Below are positions 3,947 to 52,144 of a stretch of 64,000 nt of DNA, piece by piece (the stretch's first letter is position 1; every line of letters begins with the position of its first letter). Under the pieces are notes generated by a model. It made no database searches. It saw only the letters and a program-made list of their open reading frames with translations, and was not told where the DNA came from. The position numbers were made by a program, and so were the translations under genes. This DNA comes from an uncultured Clostridia bacterium (GTDB lineage: Bacteria > Bacillota > Clostridia > Oscillospirales > UBA644). The stretch spans positions 13,881-77,880 of the forward strand of contig CAOJUB010000004.1 in the NCBI GenBank assembly GCA_948443805.1, in the 5' to 3' direction.

Positions 3947-4894
3947 TCAGTCTTTTTGAAGTTTAATGGGAACATACAAATTTAATTGATCATACCCAAG
4001 TCCCGCCTTGATCTCTTCATCGACATAAATCATGTGGACTGCAACCCCCCGGCTGCTATCAATGACAAAGTTTGTCTGATCAATCCATTTTTCAATCTTT
4101 TGCAGGACTTTCAATCCGCTTTCATCGTCCGCATCGACACTGACTGCGACCGCATACAGTCCACCAGGATGGGTAATCATCTGATAGGGTTCGGTATCGG
4201 CTTCTGTCACGCCGTCCCGGACTCGCCAAATCCATTCCGCCATTCCGCCCCGGTCAAACAGAAAATCTCCGGCATCAAAAAGGATTGGTTCAATTAAATG
4301 ATTATGAGCCTCCTGCCAAGCGTTGAAATTCCCAAACAATTCTTCATAAGTTACAACGCCGGAAGTTAACGCTCTGAATGCAGGAACTCGGACAATCATA
4401 ATTTCCGGAATTTTTTGATCCAGTTTATCCGTAATTTCAATAAAACGGTTTGAAGAAGCAGCATTTCCATTATAATCCACGTTTGTAATCTGTGTTTCAA
4501 TTATCTTGGTTTTTTCATATAACAGCTTAATATCGGATTGATTTTCAAAATTGATTTTTTTGATCTGATCGATAAATTCAAGGATGATCTTTTTCAATTC
4601 ATGCAGAAGTCTAGCCTCTCCATCAATATCGTCCACTTTCTTTTCCAGAACTTCCAAAACCACTTTTGATCCTTCAGTACTAAAGATACGTTTGATATCT
4701 TTAACACTGATATTCAACCGGCGCAGAATCAAAATTTGTTCCAGACGCTTTACGGCTCTTTCATCATACATCCGGTATGCGTAACCATCGCTTCTGGAAC
4801 TTTCGATCAGTCCCATATCTTCATAATAACGCAGCGTACGCGCAGATATGTCGTATTGGGTTGATAGTTCTCTGATTTTAACTAGATTCCCCAT
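3947..4894 (-). CDS. MerR-family transcriptional regulator with C-terminal GyrI-like effector-binding domain
   Basis: N-terminal HTH IRELSTQYDISARTLRYYEDMGLI, a coiled-coil linker and a C-terminal ligand domain. Start moved to ATG 4894 because the -10 box abuts the longer ORF start at 4954. Confidence 0.9.
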   Translation of the reverse strand: MGNLVKIRELSTQYDISARTLRYYEDMGLIESSRSDGYAYRMYDERAVKRLEQILILRRLNISVKDIKRIFSTEGSKVVLEVLEKKVDDIDGEARLLHELKKIILEFIDQIKKINFENQSDIKLLYEKTKIIETQITNVDYNGNAASSNRFIEITDKLDQKIPEIMIVRVPAFRALTSGVVTYEELFGNFNAWQEAHNHLIEPILFDAGDFLFDRGGMAEWIWRVRDGVTEADTEPYQMITHPGGLYAVAVSVDADDESGLKVLQKIEKWIDQTNFVIDSSRGVAVHMIYVDEEIKAGLGYDQLNLYVPIKLQKD

Positions 4895-4956
4895 TTTTAC
4901 TTCCAATCTTTTAGCAAATTTTTTTGTCTCTCGGTTCTTTAATTTTGTATACATCT

Positions 4957-7159: not shown

Positions 7160-7656
7160 CTGTAAGATTTATTTGGGGATATGTTTTTTTCCGTTTTTTT
7201 ACGAAAACAATATGTAAAGAAAATTTTTCCTAAAACCATACAAAAGATTCCGCAAAATGCGCCCAAAGAATCGATTAAGATATCCTGAACCATCGGCCCC
7301 CTGCCGGAAATAATCTGAATGGATTCATCGGTAACGGCAATCAACACTGAAAAAGAAAAGGCGTTCCAAAATTTTTGCAGAGAGAAGCGAAAATCATCAA
7401 TGAAAAAAAATAAAACGGATTCTCCCCCAAGAAGAAAATATTCCGAAAAATGCGCAAGTTTCCGGATATATTTTTCAATAAACAGGAAAACTGAAGAATT
7501 TTCCGCACCAACAGAAATGAAGATATTCCGAATCCATTCTAAAAGCCCGGAGCTCTGCTCTGCGGAATCGGCCTGAGAAAAAGACGAATTTCCCCAAATA
7601 AAACAGACTGTAAAAAAGAGAAAAAAAGCAATAATCCACCTTTGTTTATTCTTCAC
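7156..7656 (-). CDS. VanZ-family membrane protein
   Basis: Multi-TM protein with LAHFSEYFLLG and DESIQ...GR...QDILIDSLGA motifs typical of VanZ-like proteins. GTG start overlaps the transferase 3' end by 11 nt. Confidence 0.8.
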   Translation of the reverse strand: MKNKQRWIIAFFLFFTVCFIWGNSSFSQADSAEQSSGLLEWIRNIFISVGAENSSVFLFIEKYIRKLAHFSEYFLLGGESVLFFFIDDFRFSLQKFWNAFSFSVLIAVTDESIQIISGRGPMVQDILIDSLGAFCGIFCMVLGKIFFTYCFRKKTEKNISPNKSYR

Positions 7657-8323
7657 GTTCCAATACGCTTTCTTTTTTTTCTGTAGTTATGTTTTTTTGC
7701 TTTCCGTCTCCTGTTCCGCCTTCTACTACGCCTTTATGCTGGATAACGGAAACAATTGTTCCGAAAAAGCACTTTACGTCAAAGCCAAACGTAATGTGCT
7801 GAACATATTCACCGTCATATCTTGCTTTATCCGGAATTTCCAGCGCATCGCGGCCATTAATCTGTGCCCAGCCGGTTAAGCCTGGACGAACATCATTTGC
7901 CCCATATTTGTCCCGTTCGGCAATCAGATCGTCTTGATTCCAAAGCGCCGGCCGAGGCCCGATCAACGCCATTTGTCCGATTAAAATATTAAAAATCTGA
8001 GGAAGCTCATCCAAACTTGTTTTTCTGAGAAATTTTCCTATCGGTGTAATCCACTGTTCCGGATTTTGAAGCAAATGTGTCGGCATATCCTTTGGCGTAT
8101 CGATCCGCATTGTCCGAAACTTCAAAATATAAAAATATTTTTTATGCGCGCCGATCCTTTTTTGCTTAAACAATACTGGTCCCGGTGAAGTAATTTTAAT
8201 AAGAAACGCTAAAATCAAAAGAATCGGTGAACAAACAAGGATCGCACAGAATGAAAGAATAACATCCAGAATTCGTTTGATACCGTTTTGGTATAACGAG
8301 CGTTTTTTTTCGGAAAAACGCAT
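7646..8323 (-). CDS. Polyprenyl-phosphate sugar-phosphate transferase (bacterial sugar transferase, WbaP/EpsL-like C-terminal type)
   Basis: Motifs PGPVLFKQKRIG, KFRTM, SLDELPQ, GPRP and GLTGWAQINGRD. Start set to ATG 8323, 7 nt after GGGGGA. Confidence 0.9.
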   Translation of the reverse strand: MRFSEKKRSLYQNGIKRILDVILSFCAILVCSPILLILAFLIKITSPGPVLFKQKRIGAHKKYFYILKFRTMRIDTPKDMPTHLLQNPEQWITPIGKFLRKTSLDELPQIFNILIGQMALIGPRPALWNQDDLIAERDKYGANDVRPGLTGWAQINGRDALEIPDKARYDGEYVQHITFGFDVKCFFGTIVSVIQHKGVVEGGTGDGKQKNITTEKKESVLEREE

Positions 8324-8482
8324 AAAATAATCCCCCAACAATCGGCAAATACATTAAAGAACCGATTTTTTATAAAAAGTACAGTCTTTTATTCTTCTTA
8401 CGATAAAAATAAACCAGAAGAGAGAAATCCCTCAGGTAAAAAGCCTTTCGGGACTTCCCTCTTGTTCTCTCCGAAAAGAGTT

Positions 8483-42701: not shown

Positions 42702-43202
42702 ATGCTTGAAAAACGAAAAAAGAAGATTGATATCAAAAATCTTTCCATCAATATCTTAATTCCGCTTTGTATCGGCGCAATATCCGGGTTTCTTTGTATG
42801 GACGGAATGAAGATGTATCCGTATCTGAATAAATCAGCGATTGCACCGCCGGCAATGATCTTTCCGTTGGTCTGGTTCGTTCTGTATATTTTAATGGGAA
42901 TATCGGCTTATGTGATATCCGGATCAAGATTATCGGTAAAAAAACAAAAAAAGCATAAAGACAGAAGTATGAGTATCTATGCTCTACAGCTTGCCGTCAA
43001 TTTTTTCTGGCCCATTCTCTTTTTCAATTCGCAAAATTATCTTTTTGCCTTTTTCTGGCTTGTTCTTCTGCTTGTTCTTGTTTGCTGGATGACGGCAGAA
43101 TTCTGGAGGATCGAACAATCGGCGGCCTATCTTCAAATTCCCTATATTGTGTGGCTCATTTTTGCAGGATATCTGAATTTTACAATTTATGCAATGAACT
43201 AG
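42702..43202 (+). CDS. tspO: TspO/MBR-family tryptophan-rich sensory protein
   Basis: Five TM helices. LQLAVNFFWPILFF and W-rich motifs. Confidence 0.85.
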   Translation: MLEKRKKKIDIKNLSINILIPLCIGAISGFLCMDGMKMYPYLNKSAIAPPAMIFPLVWFVLYILMGISAYVISGSRLSVKKQKKHKDRSMSIYALQLAVNFFWPILFFNSQNYLFAFFWLVLLLVLVCWMTAEFWRIEQSAAYLQIPYIVWLIFAGYLNFTIYAMN

Positions 43203-43221
43203 CCCCCCCCCGAAAAAACGA

Positions 43222-43254
43222 AAGAATCCGGCTTGTCCAAGCCGGATTCTTTTC
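43222..43254. terminator. Bidirectional hairpin terminator
   Basis: AAGAATCCGGCTT / AAGCCGGATTCTT 13-bp stem with a 4-nt loop. T-rich on both sides. Confidence 0.8.
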
Positions 43255-43256
43255 AT

Positions 43257-44003
43257 TTAATCATTGAAAACAAATTTCAGGACATCCGGAAGCACCCGGT
43301 CCCAAAGTCCCCATTCATGTGTTCCTTCAACCTCATGATATTCAAGCGGGATGTTCCGCTCCTGAAGATAACGGCTGAATTTCCGGTTATCTTCCAATAA
43401 AAGATCGCTGATACCGCACATCTGATACAAACGGGGAAACGGTTTTCCAGCCTGAATCAGCCGGTCGGCAAGGGCAAATAGATCAGCATCCGAACCTGGC
43501 ATGGTTTTACAATAATCGTCACCCCAAATCGGACGTGCAAAATCAGCATTCTCTTCATCGGAGAGAGCGGCGCAGATATTGGTCACCCCCGACAGGCTTG
43601 CCGCAGCCCCAAAAATATCCGGATTTCGCAGAGCAAGCATAAACGCGCCGTAACCGCCCATAGAAATTCCGGCGACAAAAGTATCTTCCGGCCGTTCGGA
43701 CAAATGGAACATCCGGCGGGTCTGCGGAATCAATTCGTTTATAATATAGGAATAATACGGTTTTCCGACCGCCATATCGGTATAAAAACTATTTTCCCCG
43801 TCAGGGCAGATCAGCGCCGCAGTATGACTTCTGATATACCGTTCCGCACTGGTTCTGCGAAACCAGGTCGTGCAATCATCGCCCATTCCATGCAGCAGAT
43901 AAAGAGTTTTCACATTGTCCTCAGCATACTCCGGCAAATAGACATTAAACCTTGTTTCATGCCCTAAAAGATATGATGGACAGTTACAGGTAAACATTGC
44001 CAT
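43257..44003 (-). CDS. Esterase-family protein (putative esterase / esterase-D-like)
   Basis: LLHGMG... and nucleophile elbow GISMGG. Confidence 0.85.
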   Translation of the reverse strand: MAMFTCNCPSYLLGHETRFNVYLPEYAEDNVKTLYLLHGMGDDCTTWFRRTSAERYIRSHTAALICPDGENSFYTDMAVGKPYYSYIINELIPQTRRMFHLSERPEDTFVAGISMGGYGAFMLALRNPDIFGAAASLSGVTNICAALSDEENADFARPIWGDDYCKTMPGSDADLFALADRLIQAGKPFPRLYQMCGISDLLLEDNRKFSRYLQERNIPLEYHEVEGTHEWGLWDRVLPDVLKFVFND

Positions 44004-44029
44004 AATAAAACCGCCTTTCCGTTATGTCT

Positions 44030-44785
44030 TTATTCCACTATTACATCCGTATCCCAGGATATAAGTACCGAATCCTGTACTTCGGCAGCATTAAAACGAT
44101 AATGACCGGTGGGTTCCGCTATGGATAAATAATTTTCTTCTCGGTTCAGCTGACCTCCGTTATGAATAATATAGGCTTTACCGTCCCGGCTCCTTTGATC
44201 CGAAACAATCCCGATATGGGTATCATCGCCGAAGATTACGATATCACCCGGCTGCCAGGAGGAAAGATCATCCGGATCAACGGGTAACGGCTGGGCATAT
44301 TTCTGAAAAAACACCCGCAGGTTTTTTACCCGGCGAAAATCAATGTTCCGATCCCTTACGGAAACATTAGGATAGTCCTCCGGAAATCTTTCGATATCCT
44401 GATCGACCATATCGCGTAAAGAATATCCGGCCTGCCGAAAAGCGCGCCAAACAACATCGGTGCAAACGCCGATCTCTTTCGGCGGATATCCCTGCGGCCA
44501 GTAACGGTCATCGTATTTCGGATGATTTTCCGCATCTTCCCTTGCCCCGTAAAGCATATCCGTATAGTCATCTATCCCATTCTGGTTCCGGTCACAGGAA
44601 GAATAGATTCTCTCTATCCCCAAATCTTCCATGGACTGAGAATGAACAAAAAAATGATACCATCCAAAAACAAACGCAAGAATCAAAAGAAAAAGAAAAA
44701 TCAGAAGAAAAATGAAAATTTTTTTATTTTGCTGAAAGCTGTGATCCGTTTTCAGTTCCGGATGCCGCCGAAGACGCAACGTCAA
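44030..44785 (-). CDS. DUF1287-domain membrane-anchored protein
   Basis: TM anchor plus GVCTDVVWRAFRQAGY...PGDIVIF...HIGIV motifs. TTG start 8 nt after GAGGGTG. Overlaps the capD-like 3' end by 62 nt. Confidence 0.75.
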   Translation of the reverse strand: MTLRLRRHPELKTDHSFQQNKKIFIFLLIFLFLLILAFVFGWYHFFVHSQSMEDLGIERIYSSCDRNQNGIDDYTDMLYGAREDAENHPKYDDRYWPQGYPPKEIGVCTDVVWRAFRQAGYSLRDMVDQDIERFPEDYPNVSVRDRNIDFRRVKNLRVFFQKYAQPLPVDPDDLSSWQPGDIVIFGDDTHIGIVSDQRSRDGKAYIIHNGGQLNREENYLSIAEPTGHYRFNAAEVQDSVLISWDTDVIVE

Positions 44786-46721
44786 AAGTTTTCACCCTCT
44801 CCTGTTCGCTTTGAGAAGCAGTATGATAAGTGGGAACGATTTTATTCAACATTGTTTTAATATCTCCGCCGTCACTGTAAGCCAGTTCCTTCAGTGTTTT
44901 CAGGTCGTTCATCAAAACATCTTCATCCAGCTTAATCGGATGACCGATAAAAATCCGATTGTTTGAAGTCTTCGTCAGCCCCTCTTCGTCCATCAGCATT
45001 TCTTCATACAGCTTTTCTCCGGGACGCAGACCGGTAAACTGAATATCAATATCGATATACGGTTTAAAACCGGAAAGCCGGATCAGGTTTTCAGCAAGGT
45101 CAACAATTTTTACCGGTTTCCCCATATCAAGAACAAAGATTTCCCCACCCTTTGCAAAGGCGCCGGCCTGCAAAACAAGAGAAACCGCTTCGGGAATCGT
45201 CATAAAATAACGGATGATGTCCGGATGGGTAACCGTAACCGGACCGCCTTCTTTGATCTGCCGTTTAAAAAGAGGAATCACACTCCCGTTACTTCCCAAA
45301 ACATTTCCAAACCGAACGGCGACAAATTCTGTTTTTGATTTTTTATTATAGGTCTGAACAATCATTTCACAGATCCGCTTGGTCGTCCCCATAATATTGG
45401 TCGGGTTTACCGCTTTATCGGTAGAAATCATAACAAACCGGGAAACCTGATACGAATCGGCCGCAGCGACTACGTTCAGGGTACCAAAAACATTGTTTTT
45501 CACCGCTTCTTTCGGAGAATCCTCCATTAAGGGAACATGCTTATGCGCCGCCGCATGATAGACAATATCCGGACGGTGAGCGGCAAATACCTGGTTGACA
45601 CGGTCCGCATCCCGTACCGAGCCGATCAGCACAGCCAGATCCAACTCCGGATGAGACGATTTTAATTCATTCTGTATATCATATGCGTTATTTTCATAGA
45701 TATCAAATATAATGAGTTTTTTAGGCGAATTCTCCGCCAACTGCCGACATAACTCACTGCCGATAGAACCTCCACCGCCGGTAACAAGAACCGTCTTGTT
45801 CTTTACATATTTCATAACGCTGTCAAGTTCCGTCGTAATCGGTTCCCGGCCTAACAGATCGTTGATATCAACTTTTCTTACCGACTGTATAGTAACGGCG
45901 CCGTCGATAAGCTGATAAAGACCGGGAACGGTCTTCAGCTCACAATCTGTCTGATTGCAGATTTCCAGCAAATCCGCCTTTTCTTTTTGAGTAAGCGAAG
46001 GAATGGCAATGATAATTTCATCGACTTTATATTTTTCAACCACGCTGCAAATACTGTCTCTTGTCCCGAGAACGGTAACGCCGTTGATAGCCTGTCCCTG
46101 CACATTTTTATCATCATCAATAAAACCGACAATTTCCATTGTGCTGCGCAGCGCCGTAGAATTAATTTCCCGAAGAAGCATATTCCCAGCCTTTCCGGCG
46201 CCGATAATAAGAAGGCGACGCTTTTCGACATCAGGCATTTCTTCCGGATCATGCTTTTTTCGAAGCTGTAAAAGCGCAATTACTTTCAAAATAACCCGAA
46301 TCCCAACCGTAGCGCAGGAAGCCGTCATCATCGAAATCAAATAGCAACTCAGCGGCAGACGGCAGTCAAAAAAATGATCCAATAGCAAGCTGCCGGCAAG
46401 ATGCAAAATAGAAAGAATAAAGTTTGCAAAAACAAGAAAACCCCATTCCCGCACATCGGCAAACCGCCACATATTTTTATAAATGCCAAACAGCCAGAAA
46501 ACGGCAATAACCGTTAACGTATAAAACGGAATATAAGCAAAATAACTGTTCAGATATTCTCCCAAAATCCGGGATTCATCGATGGAACGAACCCAAAGAG
46601 AAAAAAATACAGAGAAATTCAGAAGAAGAATGTCAAGAATCATATAGAGTACTACCCTTATTTTTCCTAATCTTCCCCCGGATTCAATATTTAAAAAAGT
46701 AGCTGATTTTTCGTTTTTCAT
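44724..46721 (-). CDS. Membrane-bound polysaccharide biosynthesis protein CapD/EpsC/PglF-like (NDP-sugar 4,6-dehydratase)
   Basis: Four N-terminal TM helices, two Rossmann motifs (IIGAGKAG, VTGGGGSIG) and an SDR core (AAHKHVP). Confidence 0.9.
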   Translation of the reverse strand: MKNEKSATFLNIESGGRLGKIRVVLYMILDILLLNFSVFFSLWVRSIDESRILGEYLNSYFAYIPFYTLTVIAVFWLFGIYKNMWRFADVREWGFLVFANFILSILHLAGSLLLDHFFDCRLPLSCYLISMMTASCATVGIRVILKVIALLQLRKKHDPEEMPDVEKRRLLIIGAGKAGNMLLREINSTALRSTMEIVGFIDDDKNVQGQAINGVTVLGTRDSICSVVEKYKVDEIIIAIPSLTQKEKADLLEICNQTDCELKTVPGLYQLIDGAVTIQSVRKVDINDLLGREPITTELDSVMKYVKNKTVLVTGGGGSIGSELCRQLAENSPKKLIIFDIYENNAYDIQNELKSSHPELDLAVLIGSVRDADRVNQVFAAHRPDIVYHAAAHKHVPLMEDSPKEAVKNNVFGTLNVVAAADSYQVSRFVMISTDKAVNPTNIMGTTKRICEMIVQTYNKKSKTEFVAVRFGNVLGSNGSVIPLFKRQIKEGGPVTVTHPDIIRYFMTIPEAVSLVLQAGAFAKGGEIFVLDMGKPVKIVDLAENLIRLSGFKPYIDIDIQFTGLRPGEKLYEEMLMDEEGLTKTSNNRIFIGHPIKLDEDVLMNDLKTLKELAYSDGGDIKTMLNKIVPTYHTASQSEQERVKTFDVASSAASGTENGSQLSAK

Positions 46722-46785
46722 TAACAATATCACTCCGCGGTTAGAATCGTTCGGCTCAGAAATCTTTACTCTGAGACAGGTTCTT

Positions 46786-48012
46786 TTACCGGTTCAGATG
46801 AACCAAATGGCGAACCTGAAATCCGTAATTTTTTAAATGTGCCAGGTCGACCTGTGTTTGCTCGACTGTTGAATCGTTTTGATCAAAGAAAAAGACCGTG
46901 GTTTCAGTATATTTTTTCATATACCGATGATCCGCAACATCTCGCGCCGAACCGGCGACAAAAACAGAATCAAACTCTTCGGAAAGCAGCCTAAATATTT
47001 CCTCCGGTATTTTTCCATCCGATGCTATATCGGAAAAACTGGCCAAAAACAGAGGACTATTATCCAATTGCCAAACAGGAATCTTCTTTTCGGTCAGAGT
47101 AACAGATTTCAGCTTTTTCTCATTCCATTTTTCATCCGTCAGATTCACCAGAAGCGTTTTCTTTTTCTTTCCGGCAAAAAATAACGCAATATCTTTAAAA
47201 ATTCTCTTCGGAGAATGTCTTTCCCCCCAGATTCCGGTCAATAAAACATATTTTTCTCCGGAATCCAGCAGTTCATGAGACATCTGCATAAGAGGGATTG
47301 TATAACTTCCGGAAGAAACATCGCCCCTTGGCCGCGGAAGCAGGCACACGGAACAGTCTTTATCCAAAGACGCCAGAAAAGCGGTAAAATTACCGTCCCG
47401 CAACAAAGCATGCAGCCAGGTAATAACAGCAGACAATACAAATCCAAATAAAAGAATCAAAATGAAAACTTTTGTGGAATAAAGAATATTCGATTCGGTA
47501 TTTTTGATATCGCCGGGAGATATCAGGCAAAAGCCGATAATTTTTTCCGCATGTTTTTCAAAAAGCGAAACGCTATCTTTTAAAAACTGTTCCGCCAGTT
47601 CCGCTTCCGAAGAAGAAACAGAAAAACGCAACGAAGTTTTGTCCGCAAGAACTTCCACCGATATTTTCGGACGGTTTTCGGTTTCTGAAATCTCCAAAAC
47701 ATCAGAATAGAAAGCATCGCTTTCCAGATATTCCTGAACGACTTCCATAATGGCCTTCATAGAATCCTGACCGTATAGGAATTCCAGATTATTCCCGCCG
47801 ACCGTTGCCACATCGGAAGTTTTCAAAGAAACCTGAACCACCATTTCAGAAGTATATGTCATATTGTAGTGCGCTTTTTTCATGAAAAACAAAGTGCCTA
47901 CAGCAAGAAGTCCGATCAATATTCCAAGCCAACCGATTTTTTTAAAAGAATCCCAATATAAAGAAATCTGGCGGTTCAAGGCTGTAATATCACGATCCGA
48001 TCGTTCTTTCAT
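46786..48012 (-). CDS. Wzz-type polysaccharide co-polymerase fused to a strongly degenerate BY-kinase/ParA-like domain
   Basis: TM - extracytoplasmic domain - TM, then a ~200-aa cytoplasmic domain with P-loop-fold topology but GIWGERHS in place of Walker A. AAGGAGGTGA RBS. ATGA overlap with the upstream gene. Confidence 0.65.
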   Translation of the reverse strand: MKERSDRDITALNRQISLYWDSFKKIGWLGILIGLLAVGTLFFMKKAHYNMTYTSEMVVQVSLKTSDVATVGGNNLEFLYGQDSMKAIMEVVQEYLESDAFYSDVLEISETENRPKISVEVLADKTSLRFSVSSSEAELAEQFLKDSVSLFEKHAEKIIGFCLISPGDIKNTESNILYSTKVFILILLFGFVLSAVITWLHALLRDGNFTAFLASLDKDCSVCLLPRPRGDVSSGSYTIPLMQMSHELLDSGEKYVLLTGIWGERHSPKRIFKDIALFFAGKKKKTLLVNLTDEKWNEKKLKSVTLTEKKIPVWQLDNSPLFLASFSDIASDGKIPEEIFRLLSEEFDSVFVAGSARDVADHRYMKKYTETTVFFFDQNDSTVEQTQVDLAHLKNYGFQVRHLVHLNR

Positions 48013-49253
48013 CTTACTGTCACCTCCTTGCAATCAGCATGCAAAAACCGATTTCTCACACAGCATAGAATATTCCCGATGATTTTTTTATCGGAAAGCG
48101 CAGTGAACGCAACAGCCGAAGAAAAACGTTTTGCCGAAGAGCAATCGGAATCAATAACAAACAGAACAGATTCCGCAACATCAGGAAGACGGTCGCCGAC
48201 GGATATATGGCTAATCGCAGGATAATCCCATAAAACACAGTCAACCGACTCCGCAATTTTTTTGACCATAGCTTCGGCTTCTTCCCCGTCAGAAGAAAGC
48301 GAGTAGAACAGCGGCTTGCCGATATTTTCTTTCTTCAAAACAAGATCATCAATATTCGTTTTCTGAAAAACAGGGGTCTGCTTCATTGATAAAGTAGCGT
48401 TAGAAACAACTGCGGTCTTTAGTCCTATCCGAGTCAGCGTTTGCGCCAAACAAGAAACAACATCAGACTTAACTTCAGATTTTTCCGCCGAAGCAACAAG
48501 GAAAATTTTTCTGCCGGAAAAAATCTCTGTTTGTATTTGAGCAGCAAAATTATCCAGCCAAAGCGGTATTCCATTTTTCAATTTCAAACAGGACTCCTGA
48601 TCGATTTTTACCTGAAAACCAGCCGAATCCGGAATTAATTCGTCAATATCCGAAAGTTTTTTAATCGCATTTACCGAAGCGGAAAAAATAATCAGAAAAA
48701 GAAAAATCAGGAAAAAGGATATCAGCGGAAAAATCAGATACAAAATTCCGGAGCCGGAACCATTCTGAACCAGGGTGTCCGGGAAATGAATAATTTCCAA
48801 CGCAGATATCGAATTAAAATAACTGGAGATATCAGGATAAGCGGCGATCAATGCGGAAATCGCATGATACGACTGCTCGGGAGAACTCCCCTGCGCGGAA
48901 ATGGTAATCAAACCGCTTTCCTTCTGCAGGGAAAGCGTCATTTTCGGTAATGAATGAAACGGTATTTCCGGGACAAATGACTCCCAGAGAGACTCGTTTT
49001 CCAAAACACTTTTTAAATTTCCGGAAGCCGTTTTGGCGGCAGAATTCGCGGACCAAATATTAGAAACCTGAGAATTGCGATCATAAATCCTGACTGTTGC
49101 GGAATATTCACCGCGATTGGACTGTGACCATCCGTTATTTTCATAAATATAGGCAGCCATCAATCCAAGCAGAACAGAAAGAAGAAGAACCCACCAATTT
49201 TTCCGGATGTCATCCGCAATATTAAGCAAATGAATTTTCAATGTTTTTTTCAT
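48009..49253 (-). CDS. Wzz-type polysaccharide co-polymerase fused to a BY-kinase-like domain with impaired Walker A and no Tyr cluster
   Basis: Wzz-like N-terminus (DIRKNWWVLLLSVLLG) and a second TM. Cytoplasmic domain IFLVASAEKSEVKSD...VDCVLWDYPA...IGNILCCVRN resembles CpsD/CapB order, but Walker A reads AEKSEVKS. ATG 49253 lies 8 nt after GAGGA. Confidence 0.65.
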   Translation of the reverse strand: MKKTLKIHLLNIADDIRKNWWVLLLSVLLGLMAAYIYENNGWSQSNRGEYSATVRIYDRNSQVSNIWSANSAAKTASGNLKSVLENESLWESFVPEIPFHSLPKMTLSLQKESGLITISAQGSSPEQSYHAISALIAAYPDISSYFNSISALEIIHFPDTLVQNGSGSGILYLIFPLISFFLIFLFLIIFSASVNAIKKLSDIDELIPDSAGFQVKIDQESCLKLKNGIPLWLDNFAAQIQTEIFSGRKIFLVASAEKSEVKSDVVSCLAQTLTRIGLKTAVVSNATLSMKQTPVFQKTNIDDLVLKKENIGKPLFYSLSSDGEEAEAMVKKIAESVDCVLWDYPAISHISVGDRLPDVAESVLFVIDSDCSSAKRFSSAVAFTALSDKKIIGNILCCVRNRFLHADCKEVTVR

Positions 49254-49257
49254 ATTC

Positions 49258-50211
49258 TTAATCCTCAACGACTACAGTCAGAACGACCGCCGATTTAAAC
49301 TTTAATTCTTTTAAACCGCTGCCGCTGAATGCGGCTTCAAAAGACGGATAATCATATTTTCCCGTCATATCAGAAAAGACTTCGTTTCGACCCGAAGTGT
49401 CTGTCGCCCATCCGATATTGGAGGTCTCCGGAATATAATAAACAATATGATAAACCGAATCATATTCCGGGTTTCCGACATACAATGTCTGAACTTCTTC
49501 ATAGGGAACCTGCAGATTCAGCTGCGTAACAGTATCATACCGATGAAAGTCTTTTACATAACTCTCAGGATCAACGATATCGCCACGCTTTACATACACA
49601 ATATTGTTCGTCAGAGTCATCACATACCCACTTCCTGACTGGTGACGAACAATAGATTTTAACGGAAGAGTCACAATATCCCCAACGGAATTTTTGACCT
49701 GGATCAAAAGCGTATAGATTCCCGGCGCATCATGATCCATGTCTGTTGTTATAATTTTTGCTTTATAGGAAATATCACCGTCAAAAACGTCCGTAATTTT
49801 CAGCGCATCAACAATATAACCGCTTCCGTCCAAAGAATACAGCAGCGGAAATTTTAAATCAACACGGGGAGAATGATAGCCTTCTATCACAGCATCCACA
49901 GTATACTCTGAAGAAATCCCTTTCTCGTCAAACACAATATAAGTAACTAAAAAGCGTTCCTTTCCTTCTGCTTTTGCAAGACTTTTTATAGATATTTTTT
50001 CGCTGATATCCTTTCCCTTTGAATCAAACGCACGAACACCGCTGAGCAGTTCCTCTCGGTAATTTTCTAAAGAGACAACGATATTTTCCTCATTTTTCTC
50101 AAAAGACGGCGGATTTTTCGACTGCTTTCCGATATTTGTGATCATAAAAAATAATGCGGCAAGAAAAGTTACCGAAAAAAGAACAAGAAACCCTCTACGA
50201 AACCAATGCAT
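49258..50211 (-). CDS. Membrane-anchored protein with Ig-like (DUF5011-type) repeats
   Basis: N-terminal TM anchor. Repeats such as ITDVFDGDISYKAKIITTDMDHDAPGIYTLLIQVKNSVGD. Start at ATG 50211 after GGAGGA. Confidence 0.65.
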   Translation of the reverse strand: MHWFRRGFLVLFSVTFLAALFFMITNIGKQSKNPPSFEKNEENIVVSLENYREELLSGVRAFDSKGKDISEKISIKSLAKAEGKERFLVTYIVFDEKGISSEYTVDAVIEGYHSPRVDLKFPLLYSLDGSGYIVDALKITDVFDGDISYKAKIITTDMDHDAPGIYTLLIQVKNSVGDIVTLPLKSIVRHQSGSGYVMTLTNNIVYVKRGDIVDPESYVKDFHRYDTVTQLNLQVPYEEVQTLYVGNPEYDSVYHIVYYIPETSNIGWATDTSGRNEVFSDMTGKYDYPSFEAAFSGSGLKELKFKSAVVLTVVVED

Positions 50212-50415
50212 AAAATCCTCCATTCAATCTGCCGATAAAAACGGGAAATCCATGAAATTTTATAAAATTCTATTTTGAAATACCCGGATATGGCTTCTCC
50301 CTGAAGAGAATACCCTTCTACCCTGCCTGCTAACCTAATCAAATATTTGCCTGCTCGGAAAAACACCGGCGGCGCAACGCCCTGCTTGGCTAAATAGCCG
50401 AACAATGTTTTTCAC

Positions 50416-50435
50416 AAGAACAACTTGCTGTTCTT
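50416..50435. repeat. 20-bp palindrome copy 1: AAGAACAACTTGCTGTTCTT (one arm mismatch)
   Basis: Read directly. About +100 relative to the predicted start site of the operon leader. Confidence 0.9.
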
Positions 50436-50460
50436 TTCCTACCCATAAATTTCGCACCAG

Positions 50461-50514
50461 AAAAAAGCGGGGATTCGGAACGGATTTTCAACCGAACGGT
50501 TGAAACGCTTTTTT
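50461..50514. promoter_or_regulatory. Symmetric element A6GCG...CGCT6 enclosing hairpin TTTCAACC-GAAC-GGTTGAAA
   Basis: Read directly. On the plus strand the hairpin (50486-50505) is followed at once by CGCTTTTTT, so it is terminator-like and antisense to the operon. Confidence 0.6.
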
Positions 50515-50517
50515 CCC

Positions 50518-50537
50518 AAGAACAGCTTGCTGTTCTT
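50518..50537. repeat. 20-bp perfect palindrome copy 2: AAGAACAGCTTGCTGTTCTT
   Basis: Read directly. It starts 1 nt downstream of the -10 box of the operon promoter, in a candidate operator position. Confidence 0.9.
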
Positions 50538-50538
50538 T

Positions 50539-50567
50539 ATTATACCATATTTGACTTTTTTTGTCAA
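50539..50567 (-). promoter_or_regulatory. Consensus sigma-A promoter TTGACA-17-TGgTATAAT
   Basis: Minus strand reads TTGACA aaaaaagtcaaatatgg TATAAT (17-nt spacer counted by hand). It points at the 49258-50211 gene, about 320 nt away. Confidence 0.7.
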
Positions 50568-50598
50568 CAAAAGCCAAAAGAGAACCCATGCGCTCTCA

Positions 50599-51999
50599 CT
50601 ATTCCTGATGCCACTGTCCGAAAACTGTAAGACAAATTAAACCCGGCTCAATTCCGGCAGGTGAACCGGTAATCCGAAGCCTGATTTCACTGGCAGTCAC
50701 CGTCTCGAACGTTTGATAGTCTATCACATAATCCTCACGGCTATCCGAACGATCAAGAACGGGAAACCATTCCCCATCTAAGGAACGCGCTTCCAGTGTG
50801 TATTGAAAAGCGCCCGGAAGAATTCCGTTGCGGATATCCAGTCCAACATCCCGCCAGATCAGCCGAACCGCAGAAATGTCAGAGCCTGTCTCTGTTAATT
50901 TTACCCGAATCCATGGATTTTTATCCCCGGGAGCAGGCTGCCACCAAGACAACATGCTTTCATCCACCGCATACAGCGGATTGCGTCCGGGAAGACAAGA
51001 CGAAGCCTCTGTTTCATGATGAAAGGTCAGAGGCAGCAGACCGGCGTCGTTCCCCTCTTCCGGATGAGCTACGGTTCCGGGAGCGAACTGCGGCGTTTCA
51101 GTGACGTGCTTCACATAAAGATTTCCGTGTTCATCGATTCCAAGCGGATCCATACCGATCCGCCGCTCTAACTTATAGGAATAACAAAGTACGCAGGTAT
51201 AAAAAGCCCACAGCGTATTTTCCGGACCTTCCACAACACAACCGTGTCCCGGACCTTTAACCAATCCGGCTGTTTTTTTGATAAAAGGACTGCTTTCCAT
51301 ATACGTAAAAGGCCCCAGCGGAGATTTTGCCGTATACGCCCCCATCGCATAAGTAACCCACTCGGTACCGGGTCCGCAATAAGTCAGATAATACGTACCG
51401 TTCCGCTTCAGCATATAAGCGCCTTCAATCCAGCTATGACTAGCGTCCTCATTCCAGTCTCCGACCCGTTCCCAGACATGATCCGGATTATAGGAAAAAA
51501 GCAGTTTCGGCTCAGAAATAAAGTGAGTAGGCTCATCAGAAGCCAGTTCCACGCCGAAAATGCCTTCGCCGCCACAGCCCCAATAAAGATACAGCCGACT
51601 GTCGTCATCCGAAAAAATCATCGGATCGTCAACCCGGTAAATTTTCCCGTCTACGCCGGTAAAAGCGCCAAGTGAAGAAAAAGGCCCTAACGGACTATCC
51701 GAGACCCATAAATCAGCGCTGCATGCCGTCAGATAAAATTTATTTTTATGTTTTACAACTGTTGGCGCATAACCGATATCGTCAAACGGTTCGATTTTAT
51801 GATGTTTCCACGAAACAAAATCCTCACTGTAATACGCCATGCCGCAGGAAGGATACATATACCATTTTCCCCCCTCATAAATCACCGTAGGATCGGCAGT
51901 TTCCCGAAAATCTTCCATTTCATATTCACGGCATCTTCGTCCGATCGGATAATTCGGAAGAGGCAGGGGGTTGCAGTAGGTATTCTGATACTTTTTCAT
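50599..51999 (-). CDS. Glycoside hydrolase family 43 with C-terminal F5/8-type-C (discoidin/CBM32-like) domain, no signal peptide
   Basis: GH43 five-bladed propeller motifs (DPTVIYEGGKWYMY, WAPTV-like, catalytic acidic residues) and a C-terminal discoidin-like ~130 aa. ATG 51999 lies 6 nt after GGAG. Confidence 0.85.
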   Translation of the reverse strand: MKKYQNTYCNPLPLPNYPIGRRCREYEMEDFRETADPTVIYEGGKWYMYPSCGMAYYSEDFVSWKHHKIEPFDDIGYAPTVVKHKNKFYLTACSADLWVSDSPLGPFSSLGAFTGVDGKIYRVDDPMIFSDDDSRLYLYWGCGGEGIFGVELASDEPTHFISEPKLLFSYNPDHVWERVGDWNEDASHSWIEGAYMLKRNGTYYLTYCGPGTEWVTYAMGAYTAKSPLGPFTYMESSPFIKKTAGLVKGPGHGCVVEGPENTLWAFYTCVLCYSYKLERRIGMDPLGIDEHGNLYVKHVTETPQFAPGTVAHPEEGNDAGLLPLTFHHETEASSCLPGRNPLYAVDESMLSWWQPAPGDKNPWIRVKLTETGSDISAVRLIWRDVGLDIRNGILPGAFQYTLEARSLDGEWFPVLDRSDSREDYVIDYQTFETVTASEIRLRITGSPAGIEPGLICLTVFGQWHQE

Positions 52000-52054
52000 A
52001 TCTTTCTCCATTCCGCCGAAATTCGGCGCTTATTTTCCATTCTTTTTCCTATCC

Positions 52055-52083
52055 ATTTTATCACAGAAAAGCAATTCTGTCAA
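52055..52083 (-). promoter_or_regulatory. Sigma-A-type promoter TTGACA-17-TGaTAAAAT
   Basis: Read on the minus strand between the spoIVA terminator and the GH43 gene. Confidence 0.6.
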
Positions 52084-52096
52084 GAAATATTTCTGC

Positions 52097-52138
52097 AAAA
52101 AAAAACCCCCGATATTCCTCTTCAGAAAATATCGGGGG
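52097..52138 (-). terminator. Rho-independent terminator of spoIVA
   Basis: CCCCCGATATT / AATATCGGGGG 11-bp stem followed by T9 on the minus strand. Confidence 0.9.
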
Positions 52139-52144
52139 TAACCG

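Follow-up and report, generated by a model that had tools for sequence, protein, structure and literature searches.

Twin palindromes and two stem-loop modules in the leader of a polysaccharide operon from an uncultured Clostridia bacterium

In the lac (O1/O2) and gal (OE/OI) operons, and at the SinR-controlled epsA and yqxM genes, one dyad site overlaps the core promoter or the start of transcription and a second copy is found about 100 bp away. At Bacillus subtilis eps and yqxM the SinR motifs span 80-100 bp, looping has been proposed, and the half-site consensus is GTTCTYT (PMC3163267). Control regions of a second kind have been described in Clostridioides difficile. In these RecV-dependent switches, a short segment between a promoter and the first gene of an operon for a surface structure carries an orientation-dependent terminator-like hairpin. 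The cwpV switch comprises 21-bp imperfect inverted repeats around 195 bp (PMC2784873) and, at flgB, inverted repeats surround 154 bp (PMC5386303). Both orientations are found among public genomes or reads. Finally, in bidirectional intrinsic terminators, a hairpin flanked by an A-run and the complementary T-run is terminator-like on both strands.

We compared these systems with an 82-bp segment of a 64-kb window (the whole stretch of DNA that was analysed). The segment lies between twin palindromes, P1 and P2, in the leader of a polysaccharide operon (Table 1). As in the lac, gal and SinR systems, one dyad site is on the core promoter and predicted start, with a second copy about 100 bp off. 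As at eps, the genes concerned are for extracellular polysaccharide. The locus differs from these paired-operator systems in that the spacer bears its own bracketed stem-loop, and the operators are putative. Like the cwpV and flgB switches, the segment is short, lies between a promoter and the first gene of a surface-structure operon and contains a terminator-like hairpin whose effect may depend on orientation. Unlike them, it is flanked by repeats of direct polarity, is only 82 bp long and has been seen in one orientation. The likeness to bidirectional terminators is in the A-run and T-run around the hairpin. However, the site is within a 5' leader and not between convergent genes, the enclosed structure is branched or bulged instead of a single GC-rich stem, and there are two copies of the motif, both immediately downstream of a copy of the 29-bp repeat. 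We conclude that the segment is an ordinary, though elaborate, control region of a known kind.

Table 1. Positions of features at and around the 82-bp segment, in window coordinates.
Feature	Position	Strand	Details
Sigma-70-type promoter	50539..50567	-	TTGACA (50567-50562), 17-nt spacer, TG-extended TATAAT (50544-50539)
Repeat R1	50510..50538	-	P1 plus sense-strand tail GGGAAAAA; directly after the -10 box; putative operator 1
Palindrome P1, AAGAACAGC-AA-GCTGTTCTT	50518-50537		Perfect 9+2+9 arms
82-bp segment	50436..50517	-	Transcribed leader and inter-operator spacer
A-rich arm GAAAAAAGCG (sense)	50506..50515	-	Partly R1 tail; pairs with the T-rich arm
Inner palindrome H, TTTCAACCG-TT/AA-CGGTTGAAA	50486..50505	both	Perfect 9+2+9; -8.2 kcal/mol on either strand
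T-rich arm CGCTTTTTTC (sense)	50460..50469	-	U-tract of the sense terminator-like structure; complement is an A-tract on the plus strand
Repeat R2	50408..50436	-	P2 plus tail GTGAAAAA; 102 bp downstream of R1; putative operator 2
Palindrome P2	50416-50435		Arms mismatched at one position, G-U in sense RNA and A-C on the plus strand
Second bracketed module	50358..50413	-	GAAAAACA (50406-50413) pairs with TGTTTTTC (50358-50365)
Inferred exact repeat S, 72 nt	50477..50548	-	Extended -10, P1, linker, H and 10 nt
Putatively regulated operon	43257..50223	-	Polysaccharide-related gene content
Strong terminator closing the operon	43221-43252	-	
Upstream gene, glycoside hydrolase family 43 (GH43)	50599..52011	-	Own promoter at 52055-52083
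Terminator-like hairpin of the GH43 gene	50580..50597	-	Followed by TTTTGGCTTT; consensus scan

All genes around the segment are on the minus strand. The spacer between the GH43 gene and the operon is 375 bp, and the operon leader is about 315 nt long. The operon encodes a membrane-anchored Ig-like protein of 317/321 aa. Other products are a CapD/PseB-like UDP-GlcNAc 4,6-dehydratase (Polysacc_synt_2) and a pair of proteins, each about 415 aa long, of which one weakly matches a polysaccharide tyrosine autokinase. The remainder are a DUF1287 protein and an esterase. Relatives of the GH43 protein that bear names are from Clostridia MAGs, and the presence of SpoIVA, SpoVAC and SpoVAD genes indicates spore formation. 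In a consensus scan the operon promoter, TTGACA-17-TGgTATAAT, matched at 12/12 positions and has the TG extension. Hence, it is rated a sigma-A/sigma-70 promoter of perfect consensus, predicted to be very strong. The promoter is conserved as TTGACA-17-TGgTATACT in a 61%-identical relative and is also kept in a lineage of 94-96% identity. Two other features of the promoters were seen. The -35 hexamer is inside an inverted repeat of its own, TTGAC-A7-GTCAA (50551-50567). The GH43 promoter (52055-52139 region) is near-consensus, TTGACA-17-TAAAAT with TG, and sits right after the strong spoIVA terminator.

Each 29-nt repeat consists of a 20-bp palindrome and a GKGAAAAA tail. Aligned as direct repeats, R1 and R2 are identical at 27/29 positions (93%), and the sense strand reads AAAGAACAGCAAGYTGTTCTTGKGAAAAA. 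Beyond these 29 nt, their surroundings are no more similar than shuffled sequences. Identity amid dissimilar flanks implies a sequence-specific constraint, as for a protein-binding site, instead of a simple hairpin. In the 64-kb window there are nine perfect palindromes with 9-nt arms, compared with 1.3 in shuffles, and two are at this locus. P1 begins 1-2 nt past the -10 hexamer, and the transcription start is predicted to fall inside its first arm. Because the -10 box ends so close to P1, the palindrome should be unable to form fully in RNA, which points to action on DNA. The locus therefore has dyad sites that are conserved while their flanks diverge, one of them over the core promoter and predicted start, as in an operator pair. 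A variant was also noted in one strain (L016:4040-4130, equivalent to window 50370-50416). Here, the R2 tail becomes GGGAAAAA, identical to that of R1, and a GGCG/CGCC hairpin becomes GGCG/CGCT (C to T), with a G-U pair kept only in sense RNA.

The best-supported reading is that of a twin-operator promoter with leader stem-loops. We hold it tentatively, as a close call that falls a little short of probable. One dyad-binding repressor would recognise both P1 and P2. Bound at P1, over the predicted start, it would shut the promoter off. P2 would be an auxiliary site, acting as a roadblock or else through cooperative binding or a DNA loop that takes in the 82 bp. Hence, the 82 bp may be transcribed and at the same time serve as spacer or loop DNA. 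In the transcript, the A-rich tail of each repeat would pair with a T-rich arm 36-40 nt further on, around small hairpins. The resulting sense stem-loop, of about -20 kcal/mol and ending U6CU, could cause pausing or partial termination. On the antisense strand, its mirror image would look like a terminator.

The polysaccharide-related content of the operon counts in favour of twin operators. Against them, with 10.5 bp per turn the 102-bp spacing comes to about 9.7 helical turns, not an integer, and the A/T tracts are not clearly phased. Among the ORFs screened, no candidate DNA-binding protein for the palindrome was found beside the operon. The only regulator-like gene noted among screened window ORFs encodes a MerR-family protein, about 46 kb away. 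A regulon search with the palindrome in 185,579 species genomes gave 11 scattered single matches with no common context, and a search for the twin palindromes in JGI metagenomes gave 0 matches. Compared by eye, the sequence fits none of the LexA, CodY, cre, Rex and parS motifs. One arm of each palindrome has GTTCTTT, which fits the SinR half-site GTTCTYT, and the other has GTTCTTG. We rejected a SinR operator; the arms here, AAGAAC-N8-GTTCTT, are reversed and wider than SinR GTTCTCT-AA-AGAGAAC.

The internal symmetry of the segment, described in an earlier note on this DNA, is real. We confirmed the positions given for A6GCG (50461-50469), CGCT6 (50506-50514), the hairpin TTTCAACC-GAAC-GGTTGAAA (50486-50505) and both flanking palindromes. 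The arms extend to 10 nt, GAAAAAAGCG and CGCTTTTTTC, and are complementary at 10/10 positions; a T-arm complementary to the A-arm occurs in 3e-4 of shuffles. Folding of the 66-nt core gives, for the sense strand, -20.4 kcal/mol (z -3.2) and, for the plus strand, -21.4 kcal/mol (z -2.9). A second bracket is found directly after P2. Here, perfectly complementary arms surround 40 nt with two small hairpins; the fold is -25.6 kcal/mol for sense and -20.1 kcal/mol for the plus strand, and the pairing has a chance probability of p ~2e-3 (shuffles). Between the two modules the arms covary, as A6GCG:CGCT6 and A5CA:TGT5. Judged by sequence, the A6GCG/CGCT6 bracket thus belongs to a design used twice: palindrome, A-arm, hairpins and T-arm. 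We read the segment as the earlier of a pair of similar modules in the polysaccharide operon leader, and as no separate cassette. Variation within the species is too low for a covariation test. A search with Rfam 15 covariance models found no family match, the only two matches being at chance level (E > 5) and outside the segment.

Other origins for the segment were considered and set aside. A small ORF across it has no homologue. Tandem Repeats Finder found no tandem duplication of a 102-bp promoter unit, and similarity past the 29 nt is at shuffle level. A mobile or repeated element, of MITE or REP type, has no second copy in the window and no match in plasmids, phages or viral contigs. The inner hairpin was found in JGI metagenomes only in unrelated contexts.

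The bracket can also be read on the plus strand, where its main job would be to keep transcripts from running on into the promoter and the end of GH43. The plus-strand hairpin does look like a terminator, as had been claimed. The consensus scan flags it with the tail CGCTTTTTTC, and its stem-loop is directly followed by a U-tract; GCG:CGC closes against U6 with no spacer, at -11.6 kcal/mol without the A:U pairs. A second plus-strand terminator-like site (50386-50401, tail ACAATGTTTT; consensus scan) is found before P2. On the plus strand, P1 and P2 are followed by the U-rich tails UUUAUUAU and UUUUCCUA, compared with UUGGGAAA and UUGUGAAA on the sense strand. Furthermore, a hairpin at 50472-50486 depends on G-U pairing available in plus-strand RNA alone. 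However, the structure is not at the end of a transcription unit. It was right that no plus-strand gene lies upstream: the nearest ends at 43202, about 7 kb away. The only plus-strand promoter matches are weak (9-10/12, at 43977-46252) and are fewer than in shuffles. An antisense block, offered in the earlier note as the plainer alternative, fits the sequence, but no plus-strand promoter or gene that would need it was found.

The sense strand, according to the same note, should not terminate. Indeed, taken by itself, the inner hairpin stands 19 nt away from the sense U-tract. The claim is insecure all the same, since a fold of -15.8 kcal/mol ends 3 nt before UUUUUUCU. The predicted terminator difference between orientations is small; the sense fold is equally stable and has the richer U-tract. 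A block to antisense transcription also leaves the conservation of the 29-nt repeat, and the position of P1 on the predicted start, unexplained. We consider it unlikely. As to which RNA strand is relevant, the G-U evidence is mixed: P2 and the second module favour sense, and the hairpin at 50472-50486 favours the plus strand.

Control could instead act on the leader RNA. The modules would then be conditional sense terminators (attenuators), a 5' stabiliser or a binding platform, and the palindromes would be RNA hairpins for an RNA-binding factor. Leader-based antitermination is known for polysaccharide operons in Firmicutes. Consistent with such control, the sense folds of -20 to -26 kcal/mol have U-tracts, and the P2 mismatch can pair as G-U in sense RNA only, being A-C on the plus strand. 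The stem of the second module is lengthened by G-U pairs on the sense strand alone, and the C to T change in L016 likewise retains a G-U pair in sense RNA. However, if transcription starts 6-8 nt past the -10 box, most of the 5' arm of P1 would be missing from the RNA. The sense hairpins are also set off from their U-tracts, with spacers of 3-4 nt or the need for a 16-nt bulge. With no Rfam family match, and no antiterminator gene (such as a NusG paralogue) beside the operon, control at the RNA level is improbable.

Relatives indicate how the leader may have arisen. At the orthologous locus of the 61%-identical relative (L002), GH43 is followed by the promoter and then by a palindrome-free leader of about 60 nt. 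L002:302-411 lacks about 265 bp that the window has downstream of the -10 box, as far as ~50272 (50272-50538). The promoter and the leader proximal to the ribosome-binding site are common to both. Since L002 has the same promoter with so short a leader, the modules appear to be a lineage-specific regulatory addition. The TTGACA of L002 is placed differently relative to a common GGCTTTT motif. In the 94-96% lineage (pieces L028:3940-3981, L030:3960-4016, L001:1-30 and L029:1-35), promoter and P1 are present; one strain (L028) has a G-to-A change in a P1 arm (AAAAAC). After P1 this lineage has ATG instead of GGG. Its leader resumes at a hairpin, CGGCT-ATCC-AGCCG, where the window has GGCTA-TT-TAGCC, and the stretch between is unassembled. 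This lineage may have one module, not two.

The extra leader of about 265 bp could therefore be a functionless relic, left by a lineage-specific insertion or duplication, in which hairpins are tolerated. Its absence from the 61% relative, the change after P1 in the 94-96% lineage (ATG for GGG) and the failure to find it in plasmids, phages or JGI metagenomes all agree with this. Conversely, without selection one would hardly expect perfect palindromes, repeats that match at 27/29 positions where the flanks are unrelated, and two covarying brackets. A relic also gives no easy account of P1 falling exactly on the start of a perfect promoter. We find a relic doubtful.

About two thirds of the contigs read for the species end within the 375-bp spacer. 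All readable Logan (k=31) left contigs stop at 50519, eight readable right contigs begin at 50506 and no Logan contig spans 50507-50518. The locus's own de Bruijn graph does not account for these breaks; in the window there are no branching k-mers intrinsic to the locus at k=21-31. Illumina errors after inverted repeats (PMC3141275) would leave the identical ends in at least eight samples, and the dependence on k, unexplained. Nor are the breaks inversion junctions, as contigs run through the junction of P2 and the segment and the ends move with k. We infer an exact repeat, S, of 72 nt. At k=31, S predicts ends at 50519 and 50506, as seen. With a SPAdes k=55 vertex it predicts 50494, which is the end of L073, and with a MEGAHIT k=59 vertex it predicts 50535, which is the start of L026. 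The end of L071 (50515) is one off from the k=33 prediction. This contig-end arithmetic, for three assemblers at k=31, 55 and 59, suggests that S is present in a second context in every sample. Most likely, the second context is another promoter in the same genome.

A possible second promoter with S raises the idea that palindrome, A-arm, hairpin and T-arm form a reusable regulatory cassette, used twice here and again at that promoter. The role of the repressor would go beyond preventing initiation. An occupied operator would then couple a roadblock to attenuation. Specifically, repressor on P2 would stall RNA polymerase a few nt past the weak sense terminator of the first module, giving roadblock-assisted termination. 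We think this less probable than any of the alternatives above.

The earlier note had also raised the idea that recombination between P1 and P2 flips the 82 bp. A recombinase would thereby turn the operon OFF, with the better terminator in the sense transcript, or ON, without it. The cwpV switch, where a terminator-carrying invertible segment lies between promoter and gene, is a precedent (PMC2784873). In addition, the plus-strand structure abuts its U-tract without a spacer and the target would be a surface-polysaccharide operon. The window also encodes an Xer-like tyrosine recombinase, and such enzymes can act in trans (PMC5386303). However, no recombinase gene is adjacent to the segment. 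The Xer-like gene (284-1297), the only recombinase gene found in the 64-kb window, is 49 kb away and its product scores below the XerC/XerD equivalog cut-offs. Separately, this gene adjoins a second polysaccharide-related block, with a sugar transferase (7646-8341) and the MerR-family protein (3947-4954).

The polarity of the repeats also argues against inversion. The flanking 20-mers had been described as inverted as well as direct repeats. Both matches exist but the direct match is better (29 nt at 93% compared with 20 nt at 85%). P1 and P2 agree at 19/20 positions when aligned directly, and at only 17/20 when inverted, because the centre is AA in both. The AA centre and the asymmetric GKGAAAAA tail point the same way in P1 and P2, so the flanking repeats are not in the inverted orientation that defines an inverton. 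For tyrosine and serine recombinases, an asymmetric core sets the polarity of the site, and sites of the same polarity give excision, not inversion. Hence, recombination between P1 and P2 would delete the segment.

Orientation was read in public contigs of the same species that carry the GH43 protein and the first operon protein. The window's orientation was found, with nearly identical sequence, in 15/15 readable independent assemblies and the inverted one in 0/15. At this low depth, six assemblies cover the full segment (L016, L017, L020, L021, L026 and L070) and nine are partial, beginning at 50506 or 50498 and continuing past P2 into the gene (L022, L024, L045-L048 and L052-L054). The junction of an inverted allele would read GTTCTT followed by TTCCTACCC. 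Eight k=31 contigs are unbroken across the junction of P2 and the segment, where a second orientation would make a branch, and no contig read joins GH43 or the first operon gene to another neighbour. Known switches of this type are about twice as long as the 82-bp segment. Flipping it would change little, as the sense orientation already has a similar terminator-like structure. The inferred repeat S crosses P1 and stops mid-segment, an argument against the palindromes as bounds of a discrete unit. With direct polarity, a single orientation, no adjacent recombinase, small size and a similar sense structure, an invertible ON/OFF segment is not supported, and we regard it as very improbable.

Palindromic flanks are hence insufficient to call an inverton: whether recombination inverts or deletes depends on the polarity of the repeat core and tail. 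The inferred 72-nt repeat would cause most short-read assemblies of the species to break exactly here, and such breaks matter for binning and annotating these genomes. P1 and P2 are defined DNA probes for discovery of the regulator. If the twin-operator reading is true, a surface-polysaccharide operon in an uncultured, spore-forming, gut-type member of the Clostridia would be under compact layered control, with a consensus promoter, twin operators and structured leader modules as the layers.
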